A stretch of DNA of 64,000 nt from a virus (IMGVR_UViG_3300048691_000181:1-64000), one strand, 5' to 3'. Shown: positions 820 to 23,314, numbered from the stretch's first letter. Notes: a model not told the origin generated them from the letters alone. Program-made: numbers and translations.

Positions 820-820
820 A

Positions 821-1715: not shown

Positions 1716-1718
1716 TTA

Positions 1719-3029: not shown

Positions 3030-3041
3030 TGGAAGTTTATT

Positions 3042-4559: not shown

Positions 4560-4576
4560 AAATTACGGGTTAATGT

Positions 4577-4720: not shown

Positions 4721-4737
4721 GAGTTTAAAACGACTTA

Positions 4738-4902
4738 CTATCTGTCCACTGGACAGTTAGCGCAACCGCCTGTTGCGCAATTTGACCCGCTACAACCGCC
4801 TTTGAAGGCAGTGCAAGTAGCAGGTTTTGGTCCAGTAGACCCTTCGACTTTATAAGTCGGAATTGAATTTGAAATGATTGGATTTTTCATACCAGTTGCC
4901 AT
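4738..4902 (-). CDS. 54-aa Cys-rich peptide
   Basis: Manual translation MATGMKNPIISNSIPTYKVEGSTGPKPATCTAFKGGCSGSNCATGGCANCPVDR, ending in tandem TAG TAA. Confidence 0.6.
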   Translation of the reverse strand: MATGMKNPIISNSIPTYKVEGSTGPKPATCTAFKGGCSGSNCATGGCANCPVDR

Positions 4903-4957
4903 TTGAAATTGTTAATTTTGCCTTGTAGTAGAGCCCCTTTTTTGGAGGGCGCAGATG

Positions 4958-5137
4958 CTACTTAGCGAAAAAGAGTGAACAGGCGCGTGCCCATCCACTT
5001 GTTTCAGCGATTTTAACCGCAGCCTGAGCCGCAGTTAGGTCGCTACCCATTCCTACACTATTTGGCACTTGAGCCAAACGAAGAATGGATTCTCGTTGTT
5101 GTGCCACCTTTTCGAGGTTGGCTCTATGTTTTTCCAT
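4958..5137 (-). CDS. 59-aa hypothetical protein
   Basis: Manual translation MEKHRANLEKVAQQRESILRLAQVPNSVGMGSDLTAAQAAVKIAETSGWARACSLFFAK; fills an intergenic gap. Confidence 0.55.
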   Translation of the reverse strand: MEKHRANLEKVAQQRESILRLAQVPNSVGMGSDLTAAQAAVKIAETSGWARACSLFFAK

Positions 5138-5160
5138 TTGACAATCTCTATTTAGGTTTC

Positions 5161-6234: not shown

Positions 6235-6283
6235 AAAATCAAGTGTTTTTTGTGGCTTTCGCCGTTTATTTTTTTAATTAAGC

Positions 6284-7381: not shown

Positions 7382-7390
7382 GTTTGTTTT

Positions 7391-7648
7391 TTATTTTATA
7401 GAGCCGTATTTGGCATTGAATGCCTTTATACGGTTACCAGATTCAATTGGCCCTAATTGAGCCAACTCTTCCTTAAACTCGTCCGACATACTGTCGGTTT
7501 CCGTTCGAGGGATTTGAACCCCGTAGGGTTCGAGCTGGAAGTCTTGGAGACAATTGTTCTCCAAGATAAAGTCCAGCAGCTCCGTTTCCCCTTTAGCTAA
7601 CTCTGCCAATATAGCATCTCTAACTAAAGGGCGTACAATCGCTCTCAT
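7391..7648 (-). CDS. hypothetical protein
   Basis: 85-aa ORF with an A-rich leader. Confidence 0.6.
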   Translation of the reverse strand: MRAIVRPLVRDAILAELAKGETELLDFILENNCLQDFQLEPYGVQIPRTETDSMSDEFKEELAQLGPIESGNRIKAFNAKYGSIK

Positions 7649-7727
7649 GGGATTTGTTTTTATTCTAAGCTATTATTGTCTCTTTTCCATGTATATGGAT
7701 AGTTAGAGAATAATAATGGCTTAGGAG

Positions 7728-7976
7728 TTAGAAATTACGGAATGCCATTCCATCGAACTCGAAGAATAGGGCGCTAACCCATCCTGAATCCAATTTGACC
7801 ATTCCGTTTTGTTGAAGGACTTCAACAGGAAACTTAATAGGCTCCATCCCATTACCGACTTTGGTAAGGGTTGAAGCAGATAGTCTCCTGTTGAAGCCCG
7901 TTAATTCGACTGCCACAGGCTTATTCTTCTTTTCAGGAAGAATCGCCTTCGGCAGAATTGGATTAGCCATAACCAT
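7728..7976 (-). CDS. hypothetical protein
   Basis: 82-aa ORF, co-oriented with neighbours. Confidence 0.5.
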   Translation of the reverse strand: MVMANPILPKAILPEKKNKPVAVELTGFNRRLSASTLTKVGNGMEPIKFPVEVLQQNGMVKLDSGWVSALFFEFDGMAFRNF

Positions 7977-8144
7977 TTTTCAGTTGCGGTGGCAACGCCC
8001 CCTCGTTCAGAAGCTTCACTAACCTATTGAATTCTTATACTACGTATAAGAATCAATATAAGGTACGTGCGTTATGCGTACCTTATTATATGGTTACATT
8101 GAATTCTAAAACAAAGGGACGTTGCCTCATTTTGAGTAACGTTT

Positions 8145-8984
8145 CTAAATCCTCCGAATGCCATTTACCCGAACCCAAGAGATGGGCTGGGTTGGTTTTG
8201 AAGGGAGATACTTGACAATCAGACAGAATCCCTTATCAGGGAAACTGTAAAAAATGTAAGCAAATCCACCTTCCTCAATGGCGCTCATGTTCTCGAGCTC
8301 CACCAATGGGAGCTCTTTGCCCATGATTTCTAATTGAGCTCTCGAATCGGTCAAGAAACGAATACGAAGAGGCACTGAATCTGCGTTGTACGCCGTTTGT
8401 TCTTTTGGAACAAACGCATACTGTGCAGACACAGAATAGCCCGTTAGAATGAAAAGAAATGCCACTGTAAGTACTTTCAACCCCTTCTTAGGGGGTTTCA
8501 CCATCCATAATATAATTGTGATTAGCACCAATAGCAAAACTGGGAACCAGCTACCATGCGAAGTACCAGAAGGTACTTCTATGATGTGACCATCAGCTTG
8601 AGCATTAGCTGAAACAAATAGGCTCATAGCTAAAGCGCTAAGACCTATTTTTTTCAGGAACTTACTCTCATTAAACACACCATCGACAAATCCCACTACT
8701 GCAAACAAGCAGAGTGCAATCGTCAAAAATCCCATCATTCCAGTAGGGTCTGGATTAGGATGATGGACTGCTACAGTCTCTTGAGCCACAGCCAAGAATG
8801 GCATAGTTACAAGAGCCGAAATTGCCCTTGTTGTGTGGCACCCTTTGCCCAATGCCGAAAAGCAAAGGGTCATGAAAACTGCTCCTGCAATAATGGAGCA
8901 CGCTACGACTTCGGACATCGTAGCGAATAAAAGGCAGACTACTGCCATTCCGAGGGTGGCCAATTGGCCTGTTTGTTTTGTCAT
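8145..8984 (-). CDS. multi-pass membrane protein with repeated signal-peptide-like segments
   Basis: Hydrophobic segments ending in AVAQ, ANAQ and VSAQ, preceded by basic residues. Confidence 0.65.
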   Translation of the reverse strand: MTKQTGQLATLGMAVVCLLFATMSEVVACSIIAGAVFMTLCFSALGKGCHTTRAISALVTMPFLAVAQETVAVHHPNPDPTGMMGFLTIALCLFAVVGFVDGVFNESKFLKKIGLSALAMSLFVSANAQADGHIIEVPSGTSHGSWFPVLLLVLITIILWMVKPPKKGLKVLTVAFLFILTGYSVSAQYAFVPKEQTAYNADSVPLRIRFLTDSRAQLEIMGKELPLVELENMSAIEEGGFAYIFYSFPDKGFCLIVKYLPSKPTQPISWVRVNGIRRI

Positions 8985-9251
8985 TTTTAAAATGAAGTTT
9001 TTAAAGTAAAACTTAATCGGGGTAGTAGCCTAAGCCACTACCCCAGAAAAGAAACTTTGTTCTCAATCACAAGAACAGATTCAACCTCCTAACTGGAGCG
9101 AGGAACCTGTTTTTCTTTAGTCTAAGCGTACTTCTCTAACTTTCCGATACATTATAAGGGAGCATGAAAAGAAGTGCTTAGAAAGCAATTATTTTAAAAG
9201 GGAAAGGGAAGCTAATTCACAAATGAGAAAAGAACCCAATCCCTAATATTG

Positions 9252-9343
9252 TCGCATGTTTGGGACTCGAACCCAAATCTTTTCTCTATTGAAGAAGAAC
9301 GTGTCACCTCCCTCTCTTATCAAGAGGCTACCACCGACATGCG
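9252..9343 (-). tRNA. tRNA-like RNA with a hairpin inserted in the D arm and an 8-nt loop CUUCAAUA (UCA-containing)
   Basis: Acceptor CGCATGT/ACATGCG; T arm TTGGG-TTCGAGT-CCCAA; anticodon arm TTCTT-CTTCAATA-GAGAA. Confidence 0.6.
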
Positions 9344-9534
9344 TAAAACTCGTTCTGGAATCTAAACACAACAAAAAATTCAGAACCAGAACGAGGTATC
9401 TTTCTCTAAGGGCGGCTCATTATAATTCGAGAACCCGAAGAGAAATTCCTTAATTTAGAAGAAGCTAAAAAACCGTGTTCAAGAAATAAGATTATTTCTC
9501 AAACACGGAACCTAAGAACTTCATCTAAAACTTG

Positions 9535-9607
9535 TGGACAGTACGGGACTCGAACCCGTGTCTTATGGTTTTTATGCCATCCAGTTACCGCTACTTTACA
9601 ACTGCCC
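9535..9607 (-). tRNA. tRNA-like RNA, 8-nt loop CAUAAAAA, identity undetermined
   Basis: Acceptor GGGCAGT/ACTGTCC; T arm ACGGG-TTCGAGT-CCCGT; ATGG-CATAAAAA-CCAT. Confidence 0.65.
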
Positions 9608-9680
9608 AATTTGACTACTTTTTTTAAGGGAACATAGTCATACCCCACTAAATCTAAATCTAAATCTAATAAAATTTTTT

Positions 9681-9869
9681 GACCCGTAAAGGATTGAAAC
9701 CTTTAGCCGATAATAAACCCAGTGACCAACTCTTTGATTCCCCCTTGTTCCCGAAGGAAGCTCGTGGAATGCTCGAATGGTGTACTTTATTTCGGTATGC
9801 CTATATTGTTCTTTGCATGCCATTCAACCTTGCGGAAGAAAGCGAAAGTAATAAATATAGATAACGGGT
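9681..9869 (-). ncRNA. about 190-nt RNA with tRNA-like ends and a pseudoknot-prone core
   Basis: ACCCGT/ACGGGT closing stem; T-arm-like AAAGG-TTTCAAT-CCTTT; internal CTATATT/AATATAG, TTGAATGG/CCATTCGA and TTCC-TTCG-GGAA. Confidence 0.45.
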
Positions 9870-9873
9870 ACTG

Positions 9874-9946
9874 AGGAGAAGACGGGACTCGAACCCGTAT
9901 AACCTGACTTTCAAGTCAGGTGCTCTACTAATTGAGCTACTTCTCC
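9874..9946 (-). tRNA. tRNA-like RNA, 8-nt loop CUUGAAAG
   Basis: GGAGAAG/CTTCTCC; D arm GCTC-AATTAGTA-GAGC; CCTGA-CTTGAAAG-TCAGG; T arm ACGGG-TTCGAGT-CCCGT. Confidence 0.8.
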
Positions 9947-9954
9947 ACCTCGGA

Positions 9955-10260
9955 TTAACCGAGCAATTCACCAGCCAAACGGCTGATGCTATTGATACGT
10001 TCCTTGTCAATACTGTAATAAATAAACTTGCCTTGGCGTTCCGTAGCAACAACACCTGCACGACGTAAAATAGCGAGGTGTTGCGAAGTAACTGATTGTT
10101 CCAAACGGAGTTTGGTGTACAATTCATTAACTGCCATCTTTTCGTTTTCTTCTAACAGCTCGAGAATTTGCTGACGGACCTTGTGGTTCACAGCGCGAAG
10201 AACCAATAGCGCTTTACGGATGTTGGCGTAGTCTGCTACGCCTTTTTTAATATTTTTCAT
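9955..10260 (-). CDS. ArsR/SmtB family transcriptional regulator
   Basis: LRAVNHKVRQQIL...V.EL...LEQSVTSQHLAILRRAGVVATERQGKFIYYS winged HTH, of the Bacteroidota type. Confidence 0.92.
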   Translation of the reverse strand: MKNIKKGVADYANIRKALLVLRAVNHKVRQQILELLEENEKMAVNELYTKLRLEQSVTSQHLAILRRAGVVATERQGKFIYYSIDKERINSISRLAGELLG

Positions 10261-10301
10261 TTTTAAATGAAATTTAAGTCTTGAGACATTTCAAGACCAA
10301 G

Positions 10302-10374
10302 TGCGCCCTAAAGGAATCGAACCTTCTACCTCTTGCAAACCTAAGCAAGTGCTCTGCCATTGAGCTATGGACAC
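10302..10374 (-). tRNA. tRNA-like RNA, 8-nt loop UUAGGUUU
   Basis: GTGTCCA/AGGGCGC; D arm GCTC-AATGGCA-GAGC; CTTGC-TTAGGTTT-GCAAG; T arm GAAGG-TTCGATT-CCTTT. Confidence 0.75.
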
Positions 10375-10380
10375 AAAACC

Positions 10381-11100
10381 ATCACGTAGAAACTAATCTA
10401 CGTCCCAGACGCTTCTCTTTGAGAAATCAAAGAGAAGCTGTTTAATCCGAGCATTTCAACTCGGTATCTAACTTTTTTATTACATCTTATCCAGAAGGTT
10501 AATTACGCCTCCTGAATAAGATGCTCACTCTCTTTACCAGTCTTTGCCAGAGATACTGGGATTCTACGTGCAATAGTAGGTAATACACTCCTTGCGGAGG
10601 AAAGGCTCCTTGCGGACACCAAGCACGAATAAGGAAAATCTATCCTTTAATAGCCCTGTTATTTAACAGGGAAATGTGGATTCGCACCACATTTAGAATC
10701 TTTCTACTCCAAGCCACTCCTATTCTATTAGATTGTTAGTGGTACTCGTAATTGGTACTTAATTTTTTAAGAGTGATTTAGCCGACCAATCAGCAAACCT
10801 TCACTCCGAGCCACTCTGTTTTTCAGTGGCAACTCTTCTTCGTAATCTCCTCTACTCCCATCTCCTCTAAACTCTACGCTTGCAATCGTAAAGAATAAAG
10901 TTGAATCAGCCTCTCGGCAATTAGAGAATCCTTCCCAGTCTCTCTCTGGGCTTCTTTCCGTTGCGTATACTACGGGTCATTTGTGGTTTAAGGCTTGAAG
11001 TTTTACCACAATTCGTTGGACTATGATTGTCCATAGCACCCTGCTTTCACCCTGCAGGTCGAGGCTCGATTGGTCGCCCTTGAATTAGGGCGAGCCTCTA
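10381..11100 (-). ncRNA. large ornate non-coding RNA candidate (about 720 nt)
   Basis: No ORF >=60 aa in the track; more than 12 hairpins, two TCC-GCAA-GGA tetraloops, T-loop-like AAATGTGG-TGCGAAT-CCACATTT, a long-range 9-bp complement; flanked by tRNA-like genes. Confidence 0.65.
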
Positions 11101-11154
11101 ATATTTAATTTCATTAAATTGAATATTATTCTCACCAACATTGGTGAGACAAAG

Positions 11155-11227
11155 TGGTAGTGAAAGGACTCGAACCCTCTTTCCCCTTCGTTTTATAACG
11201 AAGCGCTCACCCATGAGCTACACTACC
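11155..11227 (-). tRNA. tRNA-like RNA, 8-nt loop UUAUAAAA
   Basis: GGTAGTG/CACTACC; D arm GCTC-ATGGGT-GAGC; CTTCG-TTATAAAA-CGAAG; T loop TTCGAGT. Confidence 0.75.
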
Positions 11228-11244
11228 TTATCCTTAATGCCGTA

Positions 11245-11922
11245 TCAATGAATCAATACGGCATTAAGGTCAATTGCTGCCCATAATTTAGACCCGACAG
11301 CAAGGTCTCTTTCCTTAATGACTATATCTCTGAAAGAATAATAGTCATTAAGGTTTTTAACTTGGAACGCAAATGCATAGAGTAGCATCTGCGCCAGTAA
11401 ATCCTCGGGTAAGATAAAACCCGAGAAGTATTTGTTCTCCACACGTGACGCTTTGGCATATTTGCCTTCAAAGTCATAGTGGCCTGCATTTGAGTATCTG
11501 TTCGCAACACATTGTTGCACATCAGATACTATATTCAAATGGATAGACCCAGAAGAGTCTATCTTGCATTGCCTCAACTGACGTGTGAAGCGTACGACCG
11601 AGGACACGAAGTCACTCGGTTTCAGTGTGGGAAATAGCTGGACAAGTTCCAGCTCTCTCCCGACATAGGGATGAGTAGTATAACGGCTATGCTTAAAGCC
11701 GTTATATACGTGAAGTTTGGAGTGGTAATTGGTATCCACTCGGGTTTCTTCCCCGAATTTATACTCCAGCTCAATTCCAACCTTGTCGATGCCCTTGAAC
11801 AAGAGCCTGAAACAGGCATACATGGAAGGACTCCATGATGCCTGATTCAAACCCTTACCCAAACCGCGAAACAGGGCAGCTATAAGCCACCCCATTTCGC
11901 GGGTTTTGTATTTTGTTCCCAT
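11245..11922 (-). CDS. putative amidoligase (COOH-NH2 ligase fold) protein
   Basis: Ordered motifs VGIELEY, ELE, SGSIHLNI and RVENKYF resemble amidoligase/glutamate-cysteine-ligase-like enzymes. Confidence 0.5.
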   Translation of the reverse strand: MGTKYKTREMGWLIAALFRGLGKGLNQASWSPSMYACFRLLFKGIDKVGIELEYKFGEETRVDTNYHSKLHVYNGFKHSRYTTHPYVGRELELVQLFPTLKPSDFVSSVVRFTRQLRQCKIDSSGSIHLNIVSDVQQCVANRYSNAGHYDFEGKYAKASRVENKYFSGFILPEDLLAQMLLYAFAFQVKNLNDYYSFRDIVIKERDLAVGSKLWAAIDLNAVLIH

Positions 11923-12269
11923 TAGAAAAGCAATGGAAATTTGTTTTTAATCTTCTGCTCCTCCGTAGAAGGAAGAGCGTTGAAGATTGAACGAAAATTG
12001 CTCGCATTCCAATTTGAGCAGCTTTGGGGATTGATACCGCCCTCTGCCAATTCGGACAGGATGCAGAATAGTCCGCCTGTTTTGCAGGCGCGCTCCCAAT
12101 CGATACTGGGAATGTTAGTTGATTTGATAACGGTTTCAGCAACGGGGACAACTGGTACAACAGGAGCCGTCATAAGGGAAGCCAACATAGCCTTCCCTTC
12201 TTTCGTTGTGAGCTTCAATCCAGCAGCTCGTACAGCAGCCTTAGCTGCTTCGTTTGTCAATCCAGTCAT
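11922..12269 (-). CDS. hypothetical protein
   Basis: 115 aa; TAATG coupling with the next gene. Confidence 0.65.
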   Translation of the reverse strand: MTGLTNEAAKAAVRAAGLKLTTKEGKAMLASLMTAPVVPVVPVAETVIKSTNIPSIDWERACKTGGLFCILSELAEGGINPQSCSNWNASNFRSIFNALPSTEEQKIKNKFPLLF

Positions 12270-12524
12270 TGTTAGATGAGTTTTATGGATTCATGAGCAT
12301 GCAATATCGCAGCTCACTTATTCTTGACCACGCAGAACAACTATGTTTTTTATGACATAACCCGCGTGGCAATTTCTTAGTCAGTCTCTTCAGCTATGGT
12401 AGACTAATTCCATAGGACAGCACGAAGGCTGTTTCGACTTTAACCGATAAAGAAATAAAAACTGGGGCTATCTAACGATACAGACAACCCCAGAACAAAA
12501 AATTTATTTCTTAACCAACTCATG

Positions 12525-12595
12525 CGAAGGGAATAGGACTCGAACCCTACTCTAACAGGACTAAACCTGTCGCGCACCCATTGCACTTCCCCTTC
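12525..12595 (-). tRNA. tRNA-like RNA, 6-nt loop UUUAGU
   Basis: GAAGGGG/TCCCTTC; GTGC-AATGGGT-GCGC; ACAGG-TTTAGT-CCTGT; GGTTCGAGTCC. Confidence 0.65.
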
Positions 12596-12705
12596 CTACT
12601 TAACATTGCACGGATTAATGACCGTGCTCAATTTGCCAATTCCGTTTCACTCCATTTGCCAATGAACGTGTGTTGCTAACCCTGCAACAAGGTTTCAAAA
12701 GAGAA

Positions 12706-12909
12706 CTACAATTGGCTCTCTACCGTCTCCACACTTAACATAACCGAAGCGGTTACGCCATTGTGGAGAAAAGTTCCCCAATAATGGGGCATGAAATCGT
12801 CACTTCCCAATCCGAAAACATCGCTGCCTTCTTCCTTGGTGCACTTAGTAGATAAATCTACGAGTGCAAGGGTTTTTACCCCAAAGTGGTTAAAATACAC
12901 TTTTTTCAT
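12706..12909 (-). CDS. hypothetical protein
   Basis: 67-aa ORF starting immediately after a T-arm-bearing element. Confidence 0.5.
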   Translation of the reverse strand: MKKVYFNHFGVKTLALVDLSTKCTKEEGSDVFGLGSDDFMPHYWGTFLHNGVTASVMLSVETVESQL

Positions 12910-12984
12910 GACAAGAACAAAGGAATCGAACCTTCATGCTTAGAATTTACCTTACGTTCACTCCTCATTACGAGGCTTACTTGT
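12910..12984 (-). ncRNA. degenerate tRNA-like element
   Basis: ACAAG/CTTGT ends, CCTC-GTAAT-GAGG hairpin, T arm GAAGG-TTCGATT-CCTTT. Confidence 0.35.
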
Positions 12985-13422
12985 AAGTGCTAAACACCCT
13001 ACCCAATGTAGGATTCTTGTTGTCTTATTGGCTGTTAAAAAATAAGATAATGTCTTAATCAGAGCTAACCAACACTCACTCTGATTAAGAACACTAAATT
13101 CACTCATTCTATACACCCTGTCAAATGACGTTATCTTGACAGACAGGCATGTACACGGTTGAGGGAAACCGTTATTTTTTTTAGCTTTAAATTTTGACCG
13201 TTCAAAAGAACACGCTTTGAGCCTAACAAACTGTTTTACTTCGCTCAAACGAAGAATCGTACACGCCAAGAAGCATACAATTGAAAACAATAATAAAATA
13301 AAAAAGAATTGGTTGCACATACAACAATAATTATTGCATGTGCAAACAATTGAACGGCTTTTTAAGGCATATTTGAGGTACAAATATTGCTATTTATACC
13401 TCAAAATACCTTAAACTTTTTC

Positions 13423-14124
13423 CTAAAAATCGAAACCGATTTTATAGGAAGATTTTACGATGTCTGTGGCGTTGTTTGATAACCACAGTCCGTTTGCCAC
13501 TGCAAACTTGCTGTCAAGTACGCTACCAATTTCGGCGGAGGCTAAAAAGCCAGCCGTAAACTTTACGGCTTGTGTTTGGTCTTCAAATCTCTTTGTTGGA
13601 GCAATGCCAATATTGAACGCAACCTCCTTTGAAGTTCCTTTAGCATCAACAAGATGCCCTTTTACCCCGTAACACAGGGTTGTGCTTGGCAAACTTGTTG
13701 CGTTACCAGCAAATTCCTTGCTAAAGATTCGAGTAACGAAAAGTTTTCCGCCTTTTATAGCATTAATAATACTGGTCTCTAATGCTAATCGGTCACTCAT
13801 TTTCCAAATTCCATTTTCCATTACGTAGCCTAATGAGGCTATCGTTGAATCAAACGAGATTCCACCTTTAGCGGTGAAATTGCTAAATGGAACAGACGCC
13901 AATGAAACAGCTAATGCTGTTACGGCTTTGAGTGTTTCAGCGTTCCGCGTAGCGATTGGTGTTGCACCAACCTGAGTAGCAGGAAATTCTACACTATTAC
14001 GCGTATATACATCTTCCAAATCCGCATCTTGCGACAATGTGAAATATGTTTCAAGTTTAGTGTTTGGTTCTTGGATGTTTGCATCCGTTAAGGCTTTAAT
14101 AGCCTTGCCTTTGGTAAGTGTCAT
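13423..14124 (-). CDS. hypothetical protein, first gene of the left arm
   Basis: Track ORF 13423..14268; plausible start MTLTKGKAIK at 14124. Confidence 0.65.
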   Translation of the reverse strand: MTLTKGKAIKALTDANIQEPNTKLETYFTLSQDADLEDVYTRNSVEFPATQVGATPIATRNAETLKAVTALAVSLASVPFSNFTAKGGISFDSTIASLGYVMENGIWKMSDRLALETSIINAIKGGKLFVTRIFSKEFAGNATSLPSTTLCYGVKGHLVDAKGTSKEVAFNIGIAPTKRFEDQTQAVKFTAGFLASAEIGSVLDSKFAVANGLWLSNNATDIVKSSYKIGFDF

Positions 14125-14285
14125 ATCGTTATGATATTTAAAGAGTAAAGAATGTCTTGTCCGTTTCAGAAACGTAACACAACTCGCAAATTTTAAAGAG
14201 TTTTGAACTCTAACCAGATTCCAAGCATCCCTACCCGTGTGGGGGGGGCTGTCTTTGACTCTCGTCAAATCTATACTGGAGTGTA

Positions 14286-14371
14286 TTGGGGAACCACACG
14301 CTAATTTTTTTACATAAATTTTTTTTTGGGGAAAAACCAGACGCTAATATTTTTATATTTTTTTTGGGGAA
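14286..14371. repeat. about 40-nt direct repeats (TTGGGGAA..CCA.ACGCTAAT + T-tracts) at the divergent junction
   Basis: Two full units plus a third TTGGGGAA; a G8 run lies just upstream. Confidence 0.7.
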
Positions 14372-14628
14372 GCAAGTAAAAGTGAGATACCATATATATA
14401 AGCGATTAGACATTTTAAGTTTTAGTTAAATAGGTCTTAAATACCATAGTAGCAAGCATACTAAACACGTTTTTTAATGGTTATTTAGTTAAGAAAGTGT
14501 TAAGATTTAGAGATGCTGGTTGGTGTTCCAGTAGTATGTTTAATACAGTTATAACTGTATGTTTGTATACATTATACCAGTATATTTTAATCGAGAGATT
14601 ATATTTTGTACTTTTTTTTTACGTAGCT

Positions 14629-14660
14629 ATTGACATTTGAGTTGCAGTAGTGTATCTTTG
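14629..14660 (+). promoter_or_regulatory. Bacteroidota sigma-A-type promoter
   Basis: TTG, 20 nt, then TATCTTTG (TAnnTTTG -7 box), 19 nt before ATG 14680. Confidence 0.65.
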
Positions 14661-14679
14661 TTAAAAAAGATAAAACAAC

Positions 14680-15222
14680 ATGGAAATGAGACAACGATAT
14701 AAAAGAGGAAAGCTTGCGACTTATATTGACCCTGATACAGGAGAGTTAATAGAGTTAACTCCTTCTTATATTCAGAACTATGTTGCGAATGATGGAGAGT
14801 CTTTTTACCAATTGTATGCTGGCTTTATTGGATTATTGCAAGATGGTGTAGAGAAATCAGAGATGAAGATATTTGGCTATTTGCTTGAACATTACATGCA
14901 TAACAATGTCTTCAATATAGGAAAGGCAGTAAAGCAAGACATGGAAGATAGATTAGGGGTAAAGCTAAGAACTATAGAGGGATGTTTAGTTTCTCTAAGA
15001 AAACCGAGAGGAGATGGAACAGCTTTATTACTATATAACACTTCAAACAAAAGTTACTGTATTAATCCAAGATATGTGATACAGAGTTTTGATGGTAAAG
15101 ATGCTCGACTTCAAAAGATTAAGATTTGCCTATCCAATGGATTTGAACCTATTAACTTTTTAAAAAAGAAACAAAATGCAAAGGACGTTCCTGATGATTC
15201 AGAAAGAAAACAACAAGGATAG
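14680..15222 (+). CDS. RepL-like winged-HTH protein
   Basis: EMKIFGYLL...KQDMEDRLGVKLRTIEGCLVSL...SYCINPRY resembles RepL-type HTH proteins. Confidence 0.55.
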   Translation: MEMRQRYKRGKLATYIDPDTGELIELTPSYIQNYVANDGESFYQLYAGFIGLLQDGVEKSEMKIFGYLLEHYMHNNVFNIGKAVKQDMEDRLGVKLRTIEGCLVSLRKPRGDGTALLLYNTSNKSYCINPRYVIQSFDGKDARLQKIKICLSNGFEPINFLKKKQNAKDVPDDSERKQQG

Positions 15223-15409
15223 TTATACTTACGAAGACCTTGTTAGAGATAGCGAAGGAACTACTAATCCTTTAGATGAAAGTTATCCCTTAAGGATTCG
15301 ACGAGTACAATCAGTCTTTTCAAGAGATGTAAAAAGGATTCTCTTAGAAGAGGAGGAGATTAAGCGTAAAGAGTTAGAGTGGAATAAAAAGATAAAGCGA
15401 ACTAAGTAA
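15176..15409 (+). CDS. hypothetical protein
   Basis: ORF track; coupled to the next gene. Confidence 0.5.
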   Translation: MQRTFLMIQKENNKDSYTYEDLVRDSEGTTNPLDESYPLRIRRVQSVFSRDVKRILLEEEEIKRKELEWNKKIKRTK

Positions 15410-15624
15410 TGACAATTAAGATAAGCCTATCTGAGCCTCAAACAAAGGAAGATAAAGATTACGTTAAAGACTTAAGGAGTCATCTAAAAACAGGATTTTC
15501 AAAAGAAAGAGATACTATCTATTATGCTCCAATAAACAAGAATCAAGTATCTCTTTTGGTAAAGAAACGAATGAGAGAAGCTGAGGTTGAAAGGCGTTAT
15601 AAGAAATCACACGAAATCTATTAG
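15409..15624 (+). CDS. hypothetical protein
   Basis: ORF track; TAATG overlap. Confidence 0.55.
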   Translation: MTIKISLSEPQTKEDKDYVKDLRSHLKTGFSKERDTIYYAPINKNQVSLLVKKRMREAEVERRYKKSHEIY

Positions 15625-15626
15625 AC

Positions 15627-16283
15627 ATGACAGCTAAGATTACAATGCACATAGCAAGAGATGATTTATCGAAGCGTATTATCCAATGGATACAGTTTTT
15701 GAATCCTAAGTTATCTCCTCTTACAGAGAAGGAAATGAATCTCTTAGAGGAAGTATTCAGATTGCCTGATAAGTTCTTTGCTGTTCCTTTCTCTACTATT
15801 CCTAAGAGGTTATATGGTGAGCGGTTGAAGATAGAACCTTTAGCGTTACAGAGATTGATTGCCTCCTTGTTTAAGAAGGGCTATCTGGTTAAGGATGAAT
15901 ATGAAGAGATGGATATATTACATCTATTAAAGGGAACTATGGTTAGAGGATTAAAGGAAGAGAGTAAAATAAGATTTGAATTAGACTGGGTATTAGATGG
16001 AGATAATATACGAACCATTGAATCTAAAAGCATTCGAGGAATACATCCAGATATTATTCGAGAAGCAAAGAAAGAGGTATCCCCTTCATCAAGATTATCC
16101 TCGCTTAAGCAAGAAGTAGAAGAAAAAGAAACGAAAGAACATAAACAAATCTTAAATGAAGACACTATTCAATCCTCCGATAAGTCTGGAACAAGCAATG
16201 GAGTACCTTTATCTTCACTGGAACTTATTGAAGCTCAAAAGAAAAGACTGGCAGAATATAGAGCCAGAAGAAAACAATCTTAA
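15627..16283 (+). CDS. hypothetical protein, possible winged HTH
   Basis: LTEKEMNLL...ERLKIEPLALQRLIASLFKKGYLVK. Confidence 0.6.
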   Translation: MTAKITMHIARDDLSKRIIQWIQFLNPKLSPLTEKEMNLLEEVFRLPDKFFAVPFSTIPKRLYGERLKIEPLALQRLIASLFKKGYLVKDEYEEMDILHLLKGTMVRGLKEESKIRFELDWVLDGDNIRTIESKSIRGIHPDIIREAKKEVSPSSRLSSLKQEVEEKETKEHKQILNEDTIQSSDKSGTSNGVPLSSLELIEAQKKRLAEYRARRKQS

Positions 16284-16285
16284 TT

Positions 16286-16816
16286 ATGCAAACTAAGAAC
16301 GCCGATATAAAGCTCAAGGAAGCGATGAAACTCTATAACGAGGATAAGCTACCTTCTTTACAAATAGACGAAGCTAAGGCAGATAAGATGCTAAAGACTC
16401 AATTTCTTTATTTAAAGAAGGCTATGACTTTACCTTATACGACCGAGATTAGAGTGCCGAGGTTGCTAACGTTAAAGATGCGCTACCGTCATGTTCGAGC
16501 CAAGATTAATGATTGCATAACTGAAGCTAAGGAACTTCGAGATAAGAAGTGCTATAACTGTGATGATATAGAATTAGAGCGTTCACAAGAAGATACGGAG
16601 AAGTTACAATCCTTAAAGAAAGAAATCAAGTACCAATGGATTTTAAAAGAGAAGTGGATGTCTATTTATACAAAGACGGCTACCTATGCGCGATTAAGAA
16701 AGCTTCGAGCTATGTGGCAAGAAAGGAATAAGGACATAAGACTGAAAGAAGATTATGTCAAGAATAGAAAATTAACTCAAATGCCTCGAACCAATGAGGT
16801 GTTTAATATCGACTAA
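16286..16816 (+). CDS. hypothetical basic protein
   Basis: ORF track; operon packing. Confidence 0.65.
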   Translation: MQTKNADIKLKEAMKLYNEDKLPSLQIDEAKADKMLKTQFLYLKKAMTLPYTTEIRVPRLLTLKMRYRHVRAKINDCITEAKELRDKKCYNCDDIELERSQEDTEKLQSLKKEIKYQWILKEKWMSIYTKTATYARLRKLRAMWQERNKDIRLKEDYVKNRKLTQMPRTNEVFNID

Positions 16817-17270
16817 CATGTACGATAACGATTCTTATTGGACTAAGAAATTTAAAGTTTATCTTGAATCTGGCAGTCAGAGACTATGCTTTGAGTTTAA
16901 ACCTTCAGCAGAAAATATATTTTCAAAATTAGCAAACGATAAACAACCAGAAAAAATGAACCAAGTAGTTACATTAGACTTAAACGCATTAGACTATTGC
17001 TCGGTTGAGCAACTTAAAGAAATTACAGCTTTGATTGAGAAAATTTCAAAACAGAAGACGACTCTTGATAATCAGAAGATATATCAAGAAATTAAAGCAA
17101 AAGAAAGACAAGAATTAGAGGCTAAGTTTAAAGCACACGAAGCAGTCTCTATGCGTATCGTTACACAAGAAAGATTCATTGCTCAACAAAGAGAACTAAA
17201 GAAAGAATTAGAAAAAGAATATAGAGCTTTAAAAGAAGCTTACGTAGCAAAATATAAAACCACTAACTAA
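16794..17270 (+). CDS. hypothetical coiled-coil protein (start uncertain)
   Basis: E/K-rich heptads. Confidence 0.55.
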   Translation: MRCLISTNMYDNDSYWTKKFKVYLESGSQRLCFEFKPSAENIFSKLANDKQPEKMNQVVTLDLNALDYCSVEQLKEITALIEKISKQKTTLDNQKIYQEIKAKERQELEAKFKAHEAVSMRIVTQERFIAQQRELKKELEKEYRALKEAYVAKYKTTN

Positions 17271-17279
17271 GAAAGAATT

Positions 17280-17843
17280 ATGACAACAAGAACAATTCCA
17301 CAAGTAAAACCACAAGTACAGATGCAACAAGAACAGACAATAACGAATCGTTTCCAACAAGACTTAAAGAAACGTATTGAAGAGAATAAGAAGTTCAATC
17401 AGAACATTCTTGAACACAAAGAATCTTTAGACAAAGTAGAATTCATCACGGGCGATATTATCGTACGGATGTTAAAGTTTGAAGGAGAGCAAGACAATGA
17501 AGGTTTACTCTTAGAGCGGAAGTTTAAACCGTTTGAGACAGAGGGTGGTAGACCTGCTTCTAAGATTGATGACTGGGACTATTCAACTAAGGCTGTCGTG
17601 GTCAAGATGCCAAGCAAGCGTTTCTTAGCACTCTTAACACCAGAGAATAGAGCACGTTACGAACTGGTTAAGGAAGGAGATATAATCTGGTTAAATATGA
17701 GTGTAATGCAGCGAGCTGAACAGTATGCTTTTATTCACGAAAGAAACTATCCTGTTCAAGGCTATGAAGGCTATCTTTTGATTCCAGTCAATAGATTTGA
17801 TGTAATTGAAGGAAATATAGCAGAGTTAAATAAAACCGCTTAG
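17280..17843 (+). CDS. GroES-like co-chaperonin
   Basis: DIIVRM...EGLLL...KAVVVKM...VKEGDIIW...GYLLIP follows the Cpn10 strand pattern; lies upstream of GroEL. Confidence 0.55.
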   Translation: MTTRTIPQVKPQVQMQQEQTITNRFQQDLKKRIEENKKFNQNILEHKESLDKVEFITGDIIVRMLKFEGEQDNEGLLLERKFKPFETEGGRPASKIDDWDYSTKAVVVKMPSKRFLALLTPENRARYELVKEGDIIWLNMSVMQRAEQYAFIHERNYPVQGYEGYLLIPVNRFDVIEGNIAELNKTA

Positions 17844-17856
17844 AATAAAGAAAAAC

Positions 17857-18450
17857 ATGCTTGTATGGGATTTAGATAAGAATTTCTGGGAGATAAATAG
17901 CATGTTCTATTTGTTCTTCAAAGAACTTAAAGATGAAGATGCTTCTAAGAATAAGGAAGTATCTTCAATCAAGATGTGGTGTATATCGATGATGGGAGCG
18001 GATACTTCTCCGTTAAAAAATATGACGCAAGAGGAGAAAGAATTGATACTAAGAGATTCTTTCTTGAAAGCACATGAGAATGTTATTCTTCCAGAGAAAG
18101 TGTCTAAGAATAAAGATAAAGCATCTTCTAAGTCAGAATACGTTAACGTGTTTAAGATATTCGACAAGAACTTAGATGCGCCTCTGGTTGAGAGGATGGT
18201 AAATATCACACATAGTAAAGCTAAGAAGCTGTTACGAATGTGGGAGAATAAGTTAGAAGAGCGTCAATACTTCATCAATACGACACCTTATGATAAGACA
18301 TCTTACGAGATGTTAGAGAAGATAATACCCCCTACGGCTAAGATGTGGCAAGAGTATTATCGGTTGAAAAAAGAATCAGAAGAAGAGAATGAACAATCTG
18401 TTCACGGTGGTACAGAAGAATCCTTCTTAGAAAAAGAATATGGAAATTAA
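17857..18450 (+). CDS. hypothetical protein upstream of terminase (possible TerS)
   Basis: 197-aa helical protein; assignment by position only. Confidence 0.55.
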   Translation: MLVWDLDKNFWEINSMFYLFFKELKDEDASKNKEVSSIKMWCISMMGADTSPLKNMTQEEKELILRDSFLKAHENVILPEKVSKNKDKASSKSEYVNVFKIFDKNLDAPLVERMVNITHSKAKKLLRMWENKLEERQYFINTTPYDKTSYEMLEKIIPPTAKMWQEYYRLKKESEEENEQSVHGGTEESFLEKEYGN

Positions 18451-18850
18451 CATGACAGATAAAGAAAAGCTTAATCAGGTAAAAGAAATAATAGCCTCCT
18501 TAGAAATACCAAAGGGTTCTATATCAGACGGCAACCACACCTTCGATGAACTCTACGAGCATAGATGTATTCTCTGGATTGCACTATGCAAAATGGAAGC
18601 AAATATTGAATTCTATATAGGTGGCACAGCAGGTTCTTCATGGAAAACAACTACACACTCTTCAGGAGATGTAATGGAAGGTTGGTTCCTATTAGGAATG
18701 GGAAAAATAAAAGGAGAACAGATAACATATCATCTACCAATTAAATATTGGAATGATTGTGAATTTGCTCAAATATTAGTAAAAGCTCCAGAATACGATG
18801 GACACTCTTCAAGTGATGTACTTGAAAGAATTAAAAAATTAGAAGACTAA
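18440..18850 (+). CDS. WDGH-domain-like conserved phage protein
   Basis: SDGNHTFDELYEHR...GWF...QITYHLP...APEYDGHSSSDVLERI. Confidence 0.7.
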   Translation: MEINMTDKEKLNQVKEIIASLEIPKGSISDGNHTFDELYEHRCILWIALCKMEANIEFYIGGTAGSSWKTTTHSSGDVMEGWFLLGMGKIKGEQITYHLPIKYWNDCEFAQILVKAPEYDGHSSSDVLERIKKLED

Positions 18851-18861
18851 AAGCAAGAATA

Positions 18862-20568
18862 ATGCAAGCTAAAGAATATACAAATCACTATAAAAACGAT
18901 GCACGGGATGTACTCATTGAAGGAGTTAACCAATTAGCCGATATGGTTAATGTAACCTTAGGTGCAGGAGGTCGATTGGTCGCTATCGAGAATACATTTA
19001 AAGAGCCTTACCTTACCAAAGATGGCGTAACAGTGGCTAAGAAGATTAAGATTAAACCACCTTATCATCTTGGTGCAGCCATGTTAAGACGTGCTGCCGA
19101 GAGGTTGGGTAATGAGTTTGGTGATGGCACGTCTACTGTTACATGTATGACGCAAAGCTTGGTCAACTCTGGTAGAGACCTTATTTTAAAGAAAGGACTC
19201 AATACACGTCAACTTGTTTATGACCTTGAACAGAAGAAGGGCTTAGTCTTAGAGAACTTAAGACATCAGAAGAAAGACTTAACAGATGATGTACGTCCTG
19301 AACATATTGTCCTAACTTCTACCAACAATGATACAGAGATTACGACAACGATTATGAATGCGTATGCTTCTGTTGGTTCAGAAGGGCTTATCTTAATCGA
19401 AGAATCTAAGTCTATGGATACTCTGGTTCAGCTCACTTCTGGTTATGCTTATGATAGAGGCTATGTTTCTTCTCAGTTCATTAAGGACAATGCTTCTCTC
19501 TCAATTACGATGAACGATGTGAAGTTTCTTTTATGTGATAGAAAGATTGAACGAACAGAGCAGGTCAAAGATATTATTCTTCAGATTGGTATGTCTAATC
19601 GGATGAATAAGACCAATACGAGCTTAGTGATTATTGCAGATGACTTTGACCCTCAGGTATTGGCTATGTTGATTATGACGAATAGGAACTATGATGGGTT
19701 AGGCATTTGTTGTATTAAAGCACCAAGCTATGGTGAAAATCGTTTCTTCATGTTAGAGGACATTGCCGCTTTAACAGGTGCTACTGTTATCTCTCAAAAC
19801 AATGGTCTTTCCTTAGGTGACTTAAGATACGAAGATTTAGGTTCTGCTGGTCAAGTCTTTATCTCGTCAGAACAGTTTATCATTAAAGAACCTTCGCTTG
19901 ATGAAGAACGCGTAAACAAGCGAATAGAACATGCCAATGCTCAATACCACAACGATTCCATTATCTTGTGGGAAAGAGAACAAGCAAGAAAGCGCATGGC
20001 TAAGCTGATGTCTAAGACGGCTATCATCATGGTGGGTGGTACATCCGACTTAGATGTTAAAGAAAAGATGGATAGATACGATGATGCGATTAAGGCTTTG
20101 ATGGTTTCCTTGAAAGGGGGTATCGTTGCAGGTGGTGGAGTAGCGATGTTACAGAGTCGACTTCAAGAAAAAGAAAACGACTGGGCAGCAACCATGCTAA
20201 ACAAGGCTTTATATGCTCCCTTTAAGCAGATTATGGATAATGCAGGTGTAATGCCTAAGGAACGAGTTAGTGTCTTAGAAGCCATTAGGTCAGGTAAATT
20301 CTATACGTTAAAGATGAAAGTAAATAGAGAGAATGATGTATGCGATTTAAGTTCAAACTGCAAATACATATCACCTTTCTTAGCTATTTCAGATTCTTTA
20401 AGAGATACACAATGTATTGACCCTTATCTTGTTACAGAGGCTTGTGTCAATACATCAGTGGCTATTGCAACGTCTATCTTACTTACTGCAGGAATAGTAC
20501 AATCAGAAGTAGCTTTGTCTAACCAACAGCTTCAGTTAGCTGAAGAGATAGACATGATTAACGGATAA
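18862..20568 (+). CDS. groEL: phage chaperonin GroEL
   Basis: VTLGAGGR, TKDGVTVAK, GDGTST, KAPSYGENR, LEDIAALTGA, GIVAGGG and IDP motifs; no GGM tail. Confidence 0.95.
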   Translation: MQAKEYTNHYKNDARDVLIEGVNQLADMVNVTLGAGGRLVAIENTFKEPYLTKDGVTVAKKIKIKPPYHLGAAMLRRAAERLGNEFGDGTSTVTCMTQSLVNSGRDLILKKGLNTRQLVYDLEQKKGLVLENLRHQKKDLTDDVRPEHIVLTSTNNDTEITTTIMNAYASVGSEGLILIEESKSMDTLVQLTSGYAYDRGYVSSQFIKDNASLSITMNDVKFLLCDRKIERTEQVKDIILQIGMSNRMNKTNTSLVIIADDFDPQVLAMLIMTNRNYDGLGICCIKAPSYGENRFFMLEDIAALTGATVISQNNGLSLGDLRYEDLGSAGQVFISSEQFIIKEPSLDEERVNKRIEHANAQYHNDSIILWEREQARKRMAKLMSKTAIIMVGGTSDLDVKEKMDRYDDAIKALMVSLKGGIVAGGGVAMLQSRLQEKENDWAATMLNKALYAPFKQIMDNAGVMPKERVSVLEAIRSGKFYTLKMKVNRENDVCDLSSNCKYISPFLAISDSLRDTQCIDPYLVTEACVNTSVAIATSILLTAGIVQSEVALSNQQLQLAEEIDMING

Positions 20569-20579
20569 GTAAAATGGAA

Positions 20580-20663
20580 AGAAGTAGGAGCTCGGTAGGT
20601 AGAGCAAAGATTAAATGAAAGGCTTTAATCTTCGGAACGTGGGTTCGATTCCCACTACTTCTT
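20580..20663 (+). tRNA. tRNA-like RNA with a 9-bp anticodon stem and 8-nt loop UGAAAGGC
   Basis: AGAAGTA/TACTTCT; GCTC-GGTAGGTA-GAGC; AAGATTAAA-TGAAAGGC-TTTAATCTT; GTGGG-TTCGATT-CCCAC. Confidence 0.7.
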
Positions 20664-20672
20664 CAAAATAAT

Positions 20673-20754
20673 GCTACGATACGCTAAATTGGTATTGCGG
20701 CTCCCGTGGAGGGAGTGGTCGAAAGACGTGAAGGTTCAACCCCTTCTCGTAGCA
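20673..20754 (+). tRNA. class II (Leu/Ser-like body) tRNA-like RNA with an aberrant anticodon loop
   Basis: GCTACGA/TCGTAGC; CTCCC-GTGGA-GGGAG; variable arm GTC-GAAA-GAC; GAAGG-TTCAACC-CCTTC. Confidence 0.7.
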
Positions 20755-20773
20755 CAAATAAACACAAAGCAAT

Positions 20774-23314
20774 ATGTTTCTTAAAAATGTAGATTGGCAA
20801 AGACATGTCACAAATAAAGCCTTTAAGGTAGATATTATAAAAGCACATCCACGCTCTTATGATTATCAATCTTTCTGGAAAGAGCAACTAAAGAAAGTCA
20901 GAGAAGGCGTCTGGGAGCAAGGGAAATGGATGCCAGGACGCCTTTACTATTTTACTAACTTTCATAATATCTATCGGAATAAAGGCAAAAACATTACTCA
21001 AAAAGTCTATGCCTTACCAGATTTAAGAGATATAGAATGGGAAATATTTCTTTTGATTGAGGAGATGCGCGGCTTTTCTGGTTTTGATGGGGATGAAGAA
21101 TATACTTGCTTAGAAGAATACGAATACATGGATATTCATAAGTCTAATATTGATATAGAAAGTGAAGCGTTCTTACACGATAGAAGTGTCTTAAAGAAAG
21201 ATAAACCTGAAATATGGTCAGAGATACTGGGGCAATGGAAAGAGTATATTCCTGCAAGACACTATCTTAAACAAATACATAGTCATAATAAAGGGATTCC
21301 TATGTACAGGAATCAGGCAAAGAATATGCTCTGGCTAACTGGACGTGGTGGTGGTAAGTCTATTATACTTGCAGCTCAAGCACTTTACGAATGGTTATTC
21401 GATGGAAAGCCACCAGTTAATAAATATTTAGACTCGGAAGATAGGGTTTCTTTGAAAGATATGAAAGCTTCTATTATAATGGGAGCAGGAGATAAAGGAA
21501 AGACTTCAACAATGGTGCGCTATATGAGAGATGCTTATTCACGTCTTCCAGGAATATACGAATCTCCAGACAGAGCTTACCCTGCACCTTTCTCTAAGCA
21601 ATATACAGGAGGATTTGACACTAAGATTGTATCATCTTACAAGAAAAAAGAAAAAGGCAAATGGTATAAGGATGCTGGGTCAGGTAGTATTATTAGAAAT
21701 CTTTCTTTCTTAGACAATCCCTTTGCGGGTCAAGGGGATAGAAATGGGCTAATTTTATTGGAAGAAATTGGGATGTTTAATAATCTTATTAAAGTATACA
21801 ATGCTTTAACACCTAATACTAAATACGATACTACTAAAAAATTTGGTTCTATATTTATGACTGGTACTGGTGGCGATATTGCTGGAGGCGGAACCGTTGA
21901 CGCTCAATATATGTTCTATAATCCTAAGAACTTTGACCTATTGACATTTGATGACCAGTGGGAACATCGAGGCATGATAGCTTATTTTATGTCTTCTTAT
22001 ATGTTACTTAATCAGCATAGAGATGAAGAAGGCATTGTAGATTTGCCTAAGGCAAAGATTACCCTTGACAATGACCTCGAAAAGATGAGGTTGACTAAGG
22101 ATAGGGATGCCTATGAGATGGAAATGATATATAAAGCTCGTGTTCCTTCTGAAGTATTTTTAACACCTAATGGTAATATCTTCCCAATCGTAGAATTGAA
22201 AGAGCGTTTAACCCAATTAGAGATAGATGGAGAGTTAGACATGTTAGAGAAAAAAGTAAGTCTTCACTATTCTCCAAATGGCATTAATGGTGTAACCTAT
22301 AAACTCTTAGACAAAGGAGAGGCCTTGCCAATAAATAAGTTCCCATGGTCTGATGGTGCATCTAAGGAAGGATGTGTTGTCCTTTACGAATTACCAATAG
22401 AAGAAAAGAGAGTCATAGACGAGACTAATTATCGGAATCAAGATTATAGCTCGATGATGTATGTACCAGAAGGGTTGTACGTTATTGGGCATGACCCGTT
22501 TAGGACCAATTCAGAGAACGGCTCTTTAGCTGCTACCGTGGTTATGAAAACAAAGAAGTATGGTCACAAGTATGGTCACGATGAGATTGTTGCTGTTTAC
22601 TATGGCAGGCCCTTTGAAGGTCGTGATGCATCTAATGAGATACTGTTCAAGTTGGCATTAATGTACAATGCTAAGGTCATGTTTGAGAACAATGTGGGTA
22701 ATGTTAAGGACTTCTTTGAAAAGAAGAAAAGATTAGACTTGCTCTATAAACGACCTTCTTCCGTACTCTCGAACAAGGATGCGTTACACTCTGTCTCTAT
22801 GTCTATTGACTACGGCTATCCACTCTCTAATCAGAAGTTAAAGATGGAAGCACTTCAATATCTTAGAACATGGTTATTGGAAGAACGTGGTAGAGAAAAT
22901 GTAAAAAAGCAGATAGTAACGTATGATAAGTTTGGAAAGAAGAAAATTTTAGAAATCATCGAATCTCAATCGGTTAAGGAAGAAGATGCGATTCGGATGA
23001 AAAACGGAGAAGACTTATCATCAGAGCGATATAAGCAGATAAGAAATTTAGATAAAATTCACGACCGAAGACTCTTAGAAGAGTTAATTTCCTATAACTT
23101 AGATGGCAACTTTGATGCGGTTCATGGATGCATAGGAGCAGTCTTAGCCTTAGAAGAGGACTATAATAAAAAGACATCTGAAGTATTTCAACAAGAGAAT
23201 GCAAATAAGATGAAATACTTCACCGAGAACCGTCGAATATTCAAAGACTTAGACTATATCGAGAAACGAAGAATCGTCGCTTACAATCAAAATAAAGTGG
23301 GTTCTCCGACATAA
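20774..23314 (+). CDS. terL: terminase large subunit
   Basis: Walker A TGRGGGKS, Walker B LILLEEIG, TGTGG coupling motif, nuclease GHDPF and GNFD; directly upstream of the portal. Confidence 0.9.
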   Translation: MFLKNVDWQRHVTNKAFKVDIIKAHPRSYDYQSFWKEQLKKVREGVWEQGKWMPGRLYYFTNFHNIYRNKGKNITQKVYALPDLRDIEWEIFLLIEEMRGFSGFDGDEEYTCLEEYEYMDIHKSNIDIESEAFLHDRSVLKKDKPEIWSEILGQWKEYIPARHYLKQIHSHNKGIPMYRNQAKNMLWLTGRGGGKSIILAAQALYEWLFDGKPPVNKYLDSEDRVSLKDMKASIIMGAGDKGKTSTMVRYMRDAYSRLPGIYESPDRAYPAPFSKQYTGGFDTKIVSSYKKKEKGKWYKDAGSGSIIRNLSFLDNPFAGQGDRNGLILLEEIGMFNNLIKVYNALTPNTKYDTTKKFGSIFMTGTGGDIAGGGTVDAQYMFYNPKNFDLLTFDDQWEHRGMIAYFMSSYMLLNQHRDEEGIVDLPKAKITLDNDLEKMRLTKDRDAYEMEMIYKARVPSEVFLTPNGNIFPIVELKERLTQLEIDGELDMLEKKVSLHYSPNGINGVTYKLLDKGEALPINKFPWSDGASKEGCVVLYELPIEEKRVIDETNYRNQDYSSMMYVPEGLYVIGHDPFRTNSENGSLAATVVMKTKKYGHKYGHDEIVAVYYGRPFEGRDASNEILFKLALMYNAKVMFENNVGNVKDFFEKKKRLDLLYKRPSSVLSNKDALHSVSMSIDYGYPLSNQKLKMEALQYLRTWLLEERGRENVKKQIVTYDKFGKKKILEIIESQSVKEEDAIRMKNGEDLSSERYKQIRNLDKIHDRRLLEELISYNLDGNFDAVHGCIGAVLALEEDYNKKTSEVFQQENANKMKYFTENRRIFKDLDYIEKRRIVAYNQNKVGSPT

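Follow-up and report, generated by a model that had tools for sequence, protein, structure and literature searches.

A crAss-like phage genome carrying nine tRNA-shaped elements without a decoding anticodon loop

We analysed a crAss-like phage whose genome is on record as a single contig of 106,963 bp (IMGVR_UViG_3300048691_000181; its first 64,000 nucleotides are hereafter the window), and found a set of nine non-decoding tRNA mimics, here named elements A to I. All nine have a canonical T loop and acceptor stem, and eight have the D-loop GG, so the tRNA elbow is preserved; none has a canonical anticodon loop (7 nt, U33, purine at position 37), and neither ARAGORN nor Rfam finds a canonical tRNA anywhere in the genome. 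The role we favour, to which we give about an even chance, is that the elements are cut marks for RNase P and RNase Z in phage transcripts, like the t-elements of plant mitochondria.

Anatomy of the nine elements

ARAGORN made only four tRNA calls in the whole genome, three of them with 4-nt anticodons; among the 324 ARAGORN tRNAs of 120 unrelated metagenome loci, 3 (0.9%) had an anticodon other than three bases. Allowing introns at a low threshold gave only noise. The Rfam tRNA model (RF00005, cut-off 29 bits) scored five elements above its cut-off (A, B, C, D and H; scores in Table 1), and no Rfam family of any kind matched the remainder of the genome. Elements F (at 9252) and G (at 20580), which lack any match to this model, combine a perfect 7-bp acceptor stem with a canonical UUCRANN T arm. 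A custom scan sought a UUCRANN T arm and, behind it, a strand that pairs with a 7-nt partner upstream; it recovered A, C, E, F, G and H, each with a perfect 7-bp acceptor stem, and added element I. Of its 8 matches in the genome 7 were perfect, whereas 40 dinucleotide shuffles averaged 0.15 matches, with a maximum of 1. We conclude that the nine elements are real, and neither chance nor, in all likelihood, assembly error. A first-pass annotation of the sequence had described eight cloverleaves with paired acceptor stems and TTCRA-type T loops; all eight lie where it placed them, and the ninth, absent from that annotation, is at 12911-13019.

Element lengths range from 71 to 109 nt with varying interiors. 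Acceptor stems differ among the nine copies, and a 17-mer T arm is identical between A and E and another between B and I. Judged against the cloverleaf of decoding tRNAs (RF00005), A to D and H lie above the cut-off, and E, F, G and I share the acceptor stem and T arm only. CCA is encoded in none of the elements, as had been noted for the original eight, and a C stands immediately after the discriminator in 7 of 8.

The claim that no element has a canonical anticodon loop holds throughout, and the ARAGORN loop calls (3 of 4 with 4-nt anticodons here, against 3 of 324 in the background) agree with it. On a 5-bp-stem reading the loops are of 8, 8, 8, 8, 8, 6 and 5 nt, the lengths first given; the 8-nt loops of A and C do not survive folding, since RNAfold closes both to 7-bp stems because the loop edges are Watson-Crick complementary, and leaves 4 nt. 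In A, the closing C-G and U-A pairs give a UGAA tetraloop, on an 8-bp stem if the A26-U pair is counted, and the minimum free energy fold is the dominant one (frequency 0.57); in C, two U-A pairs give an AUAA tetraloop. At low threshold ARAGORN also picked up element E and assigned element D a 2-nt "anticodon". Element H, which ARAGORN called a proline tRNA, has a 6-bp stem with the 5-nt loop GUGGA, and its alternative 7-nt loop has G33 and a C32-G38 pair; we know of no proline tRNA with a class II body of this kind.

Placement beside genes and a possible role in RNA processing

The elements fit tightly between genes. Spacing to a gene stop or start, or to the next element, is 8 nt for A (its first base past the ArsR stop), 17 nt for C (past the stop of the ORF at 11245-11922), 11 nt for G (past the GroEL stop), 9 nt from G to H, and 19 nt from the 3' end of H to the start codon of the large terminase (TerL) gene; B precedes the ArsR start by 41 nt. 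The gap from H to TerL is too short for a promoter of its own, so the TerL mRNA must either carry H or start within G/H. On the minus strand the elements occupy a gene-poor, RNA-rich island (Table 1), in which D and E have strong terminators 26-31 nt downstream. A pistol self-cleaving ribozyme, just after a terminator, heads an ORF-free unit of ~800 nt that ends in I, D and another terminator; with this ribozyme at the head of a unit, the island also uses other cis-acting RNA-cutting devices.

Table 1. Elements, genes and RNA features of the phage genome. The minus-strand island is listed in transcript order (column Order), followed by other minus-strand genes and then by the remaining features.
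Feature	Coordinates	Strand	Order	ARAGORN call	Description
Terminator	c13345-13313	minus	1
Pistol self-cleaving ribozyme	13193..13254	minus	2		Rfam RF02679, 54 bits against a cut-off of 34.5
Element I	12911..13019	minus	3		109 nt; 7-bp acceptor stem; extra interior (D-region) hairpins; fold z-score -2.6; low-threshold ARAGORN gives an alternative reading
Element D	12525..12595	minus	3		71-nt cloverleaf; 6-nt loop UUUAGU, stem 5-6 bp; Rfam 34.8 bits
Intrinsic-terminator-like hairpin and T run	12462..12493 (c12493-12462)	minus	3		13 pairs, then TTTTTATTT; 31 nt downstream of D
Two small ORFs		minus	4
Element C	11155..11227	minus	5	c11154-11227, anticodon ataa	73-nt cloverleaf; nominal loop UUAUAAAA; Rfam 43.9 bits; fold z-score -3.5
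ORF-free stretch, ~720 nt	10381-11100	minus	6		Hairpin-rich, between C and B
Element B	10302..10374	minus	7	c10301-10374, anticodon aggt	73-nt cloverleaf; 5-bp stem and 8-nt loop UUAGGUUU, no purine after the anticodon; Rfam 45.2 bits
ArsR-family HTH gene	9955..10260	minus	7		Pfam HTH_5, E = 5e-11; element B upstream, element A downstream
Element A	9874..9946	minus	7	c9873-9946, anticodon tgaa	Perfect 73-nt cloverleaf; nominal 8-nt loop CUUGAAAG; Rfam 65.5 bits; fold z-score -5.4
RNA-like stretch, ~190 nt	9681-9869	minus	8		Between A and E
Element E	9535..9607	minus	9		73 nt; G3:U70, A73; weak D arm; 4-bp stem and 8-nt loop CAUAAAAA, without U33
Intrinsic-terminator-like hairpin and T run	9473..9508 (c9508-9473)	minus	9		16 pairs, then TTTTTT; just after E
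Element F	9252..9343	minus	10		92 nt; 7-bp acceptor stem, canonical T arm, extra D-region hairpin; nominal 8-nt loop CUUCAAUA; fold z-score -2.7
Terminator	c9045-9018	minus	10
225-aa ORF	11245-11922	minus			Just upstream of element C
505-aa ORF	3042-4559	minus			No Pfam match (E up to 0.01), no PHROG match
GroEL-like chaperonin gene	18862..20568	plus			Pfam Cpn60_TCP1, E = 7e-43; directly upstream of the TerL gene
Element G	20580..20663	plus			84 nt; 9-bp "anticodon" stem and 8-nt loop UGAAAGGC
Element H	20673..20754	plus		20673-20755, Pro-tgg	82 nt, class II-type; 3-bp D stem, long variable arm, A73; Rfam 32.3 bits; fold z-score -3.1
Large terminase (TerL)	20774..23314	plus			crAss-type PHROG 6681, E = 9e-84
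Portal	23349-26012				crAss-type PHROG family match
Major head protein	27331-28809				crAss-type PHROG family match

RNase P gauges the acceptor/T-arm stack and the elbow of its substrate, not the anticodon (PMC4919913). The parts kept in the phage elements point to the same division: they are those used by RNase P, RNase Z and the CCA-adding enzyme, and the part that varies is the one needed by the ribosome and by anticodon-reading enzymes. The kept top half, the tight fit to genes and terminators, and the ribozyme in the island together suggest marks that say "cut here". The elements would be transcribed inside longer phage transcripts, as their spacing suggests, and would be cut by host enzymes at both the 5' and the 3' end. 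Such cuts would separate neighbouring mRNAs and non-coding RNAs, in the order GroEL, G, H, terminase on the plus strand and ORF, C, large RNA, B, ArsR, A, RNA, E on the minus strand, and would release small stable tRNA-like by-products. Decoding would have been lost by selection, sparing the phage mistranslation and anticodon-directed attack: the anticodon arm has been sealed, shortened, lengthened or replaced while the acceptor stem, the T arm and mostly the D-loop GG are kept. Two hallmarks of t-elements are a tRNA-like acceptor/T-arm fold without decoding capacity, which the elements have, and a location at mRNA or RNA ends, which their spacing and the terminators match, with co-transcription probable from the spacing.

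Several observations weigh against this reading. The 225-aa ORF beside C has no homolog, which marks the island as variable and perhaps young, and three complete relatives have only 0-4 such elements, so that punctuation of this kind is no need of the whole clade. Elements A to D keep full D arms and anticodon stems that are superfluous for a bare cut mark, which leaves room for a second role; and co-transcription is read from spacing. The RNAs released from A to D, with complete D arms and anticodon stems, may also be stable decoys. The first-pass annotation had offered decoys and processing signals side by side: gene-tight placement favours processing, and the decoy role stays the less probable of the two. 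Its further proposal, that these are non-decoding mimics kept by selection and not products of random decay, is supported by the intact stems and D-loop/T-loop elbow together with the absence of a canonical loop.

The genome around the elements is read with the standard code, in which ORFs span 91% of the genome, the longest has 6332 codons, and TAA, TAG and TGA are all in use; stop-codon recoding in the phage is thereby rejected. Minus-strand genes left of ~14.3 kb have 41-44% G+C, and the remaining genes are on the plus strand with 33-39%; the left arm with the RNA island (1-14300), higher in G+C, may be a separately acquired or an RNA-rich module. The 225-aa ORF matched only itself among 5.8 billion proteins and has no Pfam match, which leaves a candidate label of "amidoligase" unsupported. 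Neither of the two long stretches between elements of the island matches Rfam, the ~720-nt one even at E up to 10; the ~190-nt one is closed by an acceptor-like 6-bp stem, beside a hairpin with a non-canonical T-like loop UUUCAAU.

Distribution among relatives

The nearest TerL homolog (81% identity) lies on a 103,776-bp ENA contig (P0003); further homologs, at 58-62% identity, are on Logan contigs, and several TerL homologs carry intein/LAGLIDADG domains. An IMG/VR profile search gave a relatives set of 80 loci at no more than 61% identity. In these loci ARAGORN called ten tRNAs, all ten with 7-nt loops, and eight of them are UCA suppressors with CU-UCA-AA loops upstream of the TerL gene. Across the same relatives' loci the scan for T arm and acceptor stem found ~15 long tRNA-like elements uncalled by ARAGORN. 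One, in the nearest IMG/VR relative (L002, 9840-9941, plus strand), is a 103-nt element with a canonical T arm, an 8-bp acceptor stem and a non-tRNA interior, in the same GroEL-TerL gap that G and H occupy here. Others form a family (L011:6922-7037, L019:6850-6952, L021:3616-3731 and L044:2000-2092) that shares the motif UAUACAAG..GGU..AAGCAG after the acceptor strand; the acceptor and T stems of its members diverge at most positions with pairing always kept, none is called by ARAGORN, and the two loci scanned with Rfam (L011 and L019) gave no tRNA match. We count both the L002 element and this family in favour of the processing reading.

Whole-record checks of five relatives found 0-3 tRNA-model matches each, and the three relative genomes fetched in full contain 0-4 top-half elements each, a 132-nt tRNA with a replaced interior among them. 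We conclude that non-decoding tRNA mimics recur across the clade, unevenly, and that the phage described here has the most copies and the most tRNA-like form. Among side observations in the relatives, a 132-nt tRNA-model match in L208 (G004:C1:4136-4267; 46.6 bits) has a normal acceptor stem, D arm and T arm, with ~60 nt in place of the anticodon region; the related crAss-like contig L019 carries a full tmRNA (3723-3984, plus strand; 76 bits) and, separately, a 104-nt tRNA-like element (6850-6956, plus strand) that matches tmRNA ends only; and L011 has two group I intron matches (5212-5403, 50.5 bits; 16830-17007, 35.6 bits).

Searches elsewhere returned little. GenBank phages, searched with DNA and protein, gave generic tRNA or distant GroEL matches only; IMG/VR gave no match to GroEL and TerL alone, nor to exact patterns of the A and B anticodon arms. 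In GTDB genomes a TerL profile had just two distant matches, one of which falls in a Bacteroidota metagenome-assembled genome. A metagenome scan for the D and anticodon stems of A with a 7-8-nt loop found no phage homolog; all it returned were ordinary tRNAs for Lys, Asn, Thr and His, plus a single Lys tRNA whose loop has 8 nt.

Alternative explanations, known parallels and significance

The first-pass annotation had also raised natural quadruplet decoding, in which the elements would read four-base codons in phage genes, a reading encouraged by the three 4-nt anticodons called by ARAGORN. Known +1-frameshifting suppressors of the sufD/sufB2 type (PMC9094753) resemble the five copies with a nominal 8-nt loop; the likeness ends at the pattern Y32-U33-NNNN-R-N, which only two of the five fit, A (C-U-UGAA-A-G) and C (U-U-AUAA-A-A), and both of these are predicted to fold shut into tetraloops where a suppressor loop stays open. 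The loops of B, E and F are missing U33 or a purine on the 3' side of the anticodon, those of D and H have 6 and 5 nt, and the standard code gives ORFs, up to 6332 codons long, over 91% of the genome. Genes shared with relatives are unsplit over 15-30 kb, and every downstream ORF begins with a start codon of its own close to the stop of the ORF before it, with +1 overlaps no commoner than -1, both being weak tests. Quadruplet decoding was thus not borne out and we consider it most improbable, as we do the narrower version in which A and C alone would be four-base decoders or +1 frameshifters for a few phage or host messages. A still smaller, practically negligible chance attaches to one-base indels in the loops from assembly or sequencing. 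Several loops do contain short A or U runs, and deleting one U from A yields a normal-looking CU-GAA-AG loop; however, A is the only element that a one-base deletion normalises, and a one-base insertion does so in one further element. After loss of one base B, C, E and F would still fall short of U33 plus a position-37 purine, the departure of F, G, H and I from tRNA goes well beyond a single base, and assembly error is unlikely because the giant ORFs are unbroken in the same assembly. Decay is a less remote but still quite unlikely account: the elements would be relics of a tRNA or suppressor set, for example after loss of stop-codon recoding. The canonical UCA suppressors upstream of TerL in relatives, the standard code of this phage, the CU-UCA-A with extra bases held in the loop of F, and the lack of most of these elements in the nearest comparators all fit such a history. 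Against it, every copy is damaged in the anticodon arm while the 7-bp acceptor stems and T arms stay paired, and F, G and I carry large interior inserts with the top half still perfect, which implies long survival in a non-decoding state. Nor would junk be expected to fit so tightly between genes, or odd loops to make up three of four ARAGORN calls against 0.9% in the background.

Of the alternatives, decoys or sponges deserve the most weight, and we regard them as possible but unlikely as the explanation of the set. Released tRNA-shaped RNAs would occupy host factors that grip the tRNA body, such as tRNA-targeting defence nucleases, acceptor-end toxins, modification enzymes or synthetases, while being useless to the ribosome and immune to anticodon-directed cleavage. 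That A to D and H keep full L-shape features, more than a cut mark needs, would suit this role, as would nine copies with differing acceptor stems and an accessory island without conserved genes, as often found at counter-defence loci. Precedent exists in phage tRNAs that counter tRNA-cleaving defences (PMC10264068, PMC11464382, PMC11555353), but these known cases are decoding tRNAs with 7-nt loops, and a decoy for an anticodon nuclease needs a matching loop, whereas the loops here are all different. Among the neighbouring genes no defence or anti-defence protein could be recognised, and a decoy role is in any case compatible with a processing role. Some synthetases, among them those for alanine and for class II tRNAs, ignore the anticodon. 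E and H could therefore be chargeable and act as carriers in a non-ribosomal or ribosome-rescue-like process, which we judge very unlikely for the set; at most 2 of the 9 elements fit. Element E has the alanine identity pair G3:U70 and matches the tRNA-like domain of tmRNA, H has its 3-bp D stem, long variable arm and A73, and a true tmRNA occurs in relative L019 (76 bits). However, no tRNA-dependent enzyme was recognised among the neighbours, and E lacks a tag frame and pseudoknots. Its alanine/tmRNA-type acceptor signature matches the Rfam tmRNA tRNA-like domain at both model ends only, at 20 bits against a 47-bit cut-off, and ARAGORN -m finds no tmRNA, so that a tmRNA identity for E is rejected.

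For the elements as processing signals, the closest parallel is with the plant mitochondrial t-elements and the tRNA-punctuation model, as described by Forner et al. (2007; PMC1920247): t-elements too are non-decoding tRNA-like folds at mRNA 5' or 3' ends, put forward as cleavage signals for RNase P and RNase Z. They differ in being mitochondrial, with cleavage mapped there; in the phage the enzymes would be those of the host. Several phage copies are, moreover, complete cloverleaves in which the loop alone is altered. Eukaryotes offer the 3'-end elements of the mascRNA/MALAT1 type and the eight non-aminoacylated tRNA-like RNAs of murine gammaherpesvirus 68, which are genome-encoded, processed by host tRNA enzymes and do not decode, and whose processing releases neighbouring RNAs; some of them are driven by RNA polymerase III. 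The phage elements have no sequence relation to these mimics.

With canonical bacterial and phage tRNAs (RF00005) they share the cloverleaf body, the 65.5 bits of element A being close to the 66.9 bits of a relative's canonical Lys tRNA. Phage tRNAs with anticodon-loop mutations that evade host nucleases have been reported (PMC10264068); these, like canonical tRNAs, have 7-nt loops with U33 and still decode, in contrast to the 4-, 5-, 6- and 8-nt loops found here, and a term search of that paper for loop length or insertions came up empty. Element E resembles the tRNA-like domain of tmRNA in its G3:U70 pair, its A73, its canonical T arm and its reduced D arm; E differs in having no mRNA-like region, pseudoknots or tag peptide, and in its length of only 73 nt. 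Species 1 and 2 of phage T4 are small stable RNAs of no established role, encoded in a tRNA cluster and co-processed with it. T4 also has real tRNAs, however, and its two species are not loop-altered cloverleaves. YrlA-type Y RNA mimics are encoded beside a Ro60/Rsr (TROVE) gene and have a Ro-binding stem. The phage elements have open acceptor ends, as tRNA does; a link to Y RNA and Ro60 was rejected, the candidate 505-aa ORF having no TROVE, Pfam or PHROG match. We found no published description of such elements in phages in the literature.

We suggest that these elements bear on how tRNA genes in phages are understood. Codon supply and escape from tRNA-cleaving defences are the usual explanations for such genes, and a phage whose tRNA-shaped genes include none that decodes points to a further, third function of this fold in phages: host tRNA-trimming enzymes would be borrowed to cut or end phage transcripts, with the products perhaps serving as stable decoy RNAs. 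If this is true, tRNA counts in phage genomes are partly mis-read, and the intergenic "pseudo-tRNAs" of crAss-like phages would be regulatory parts, compact and portable signals for RNA processing.

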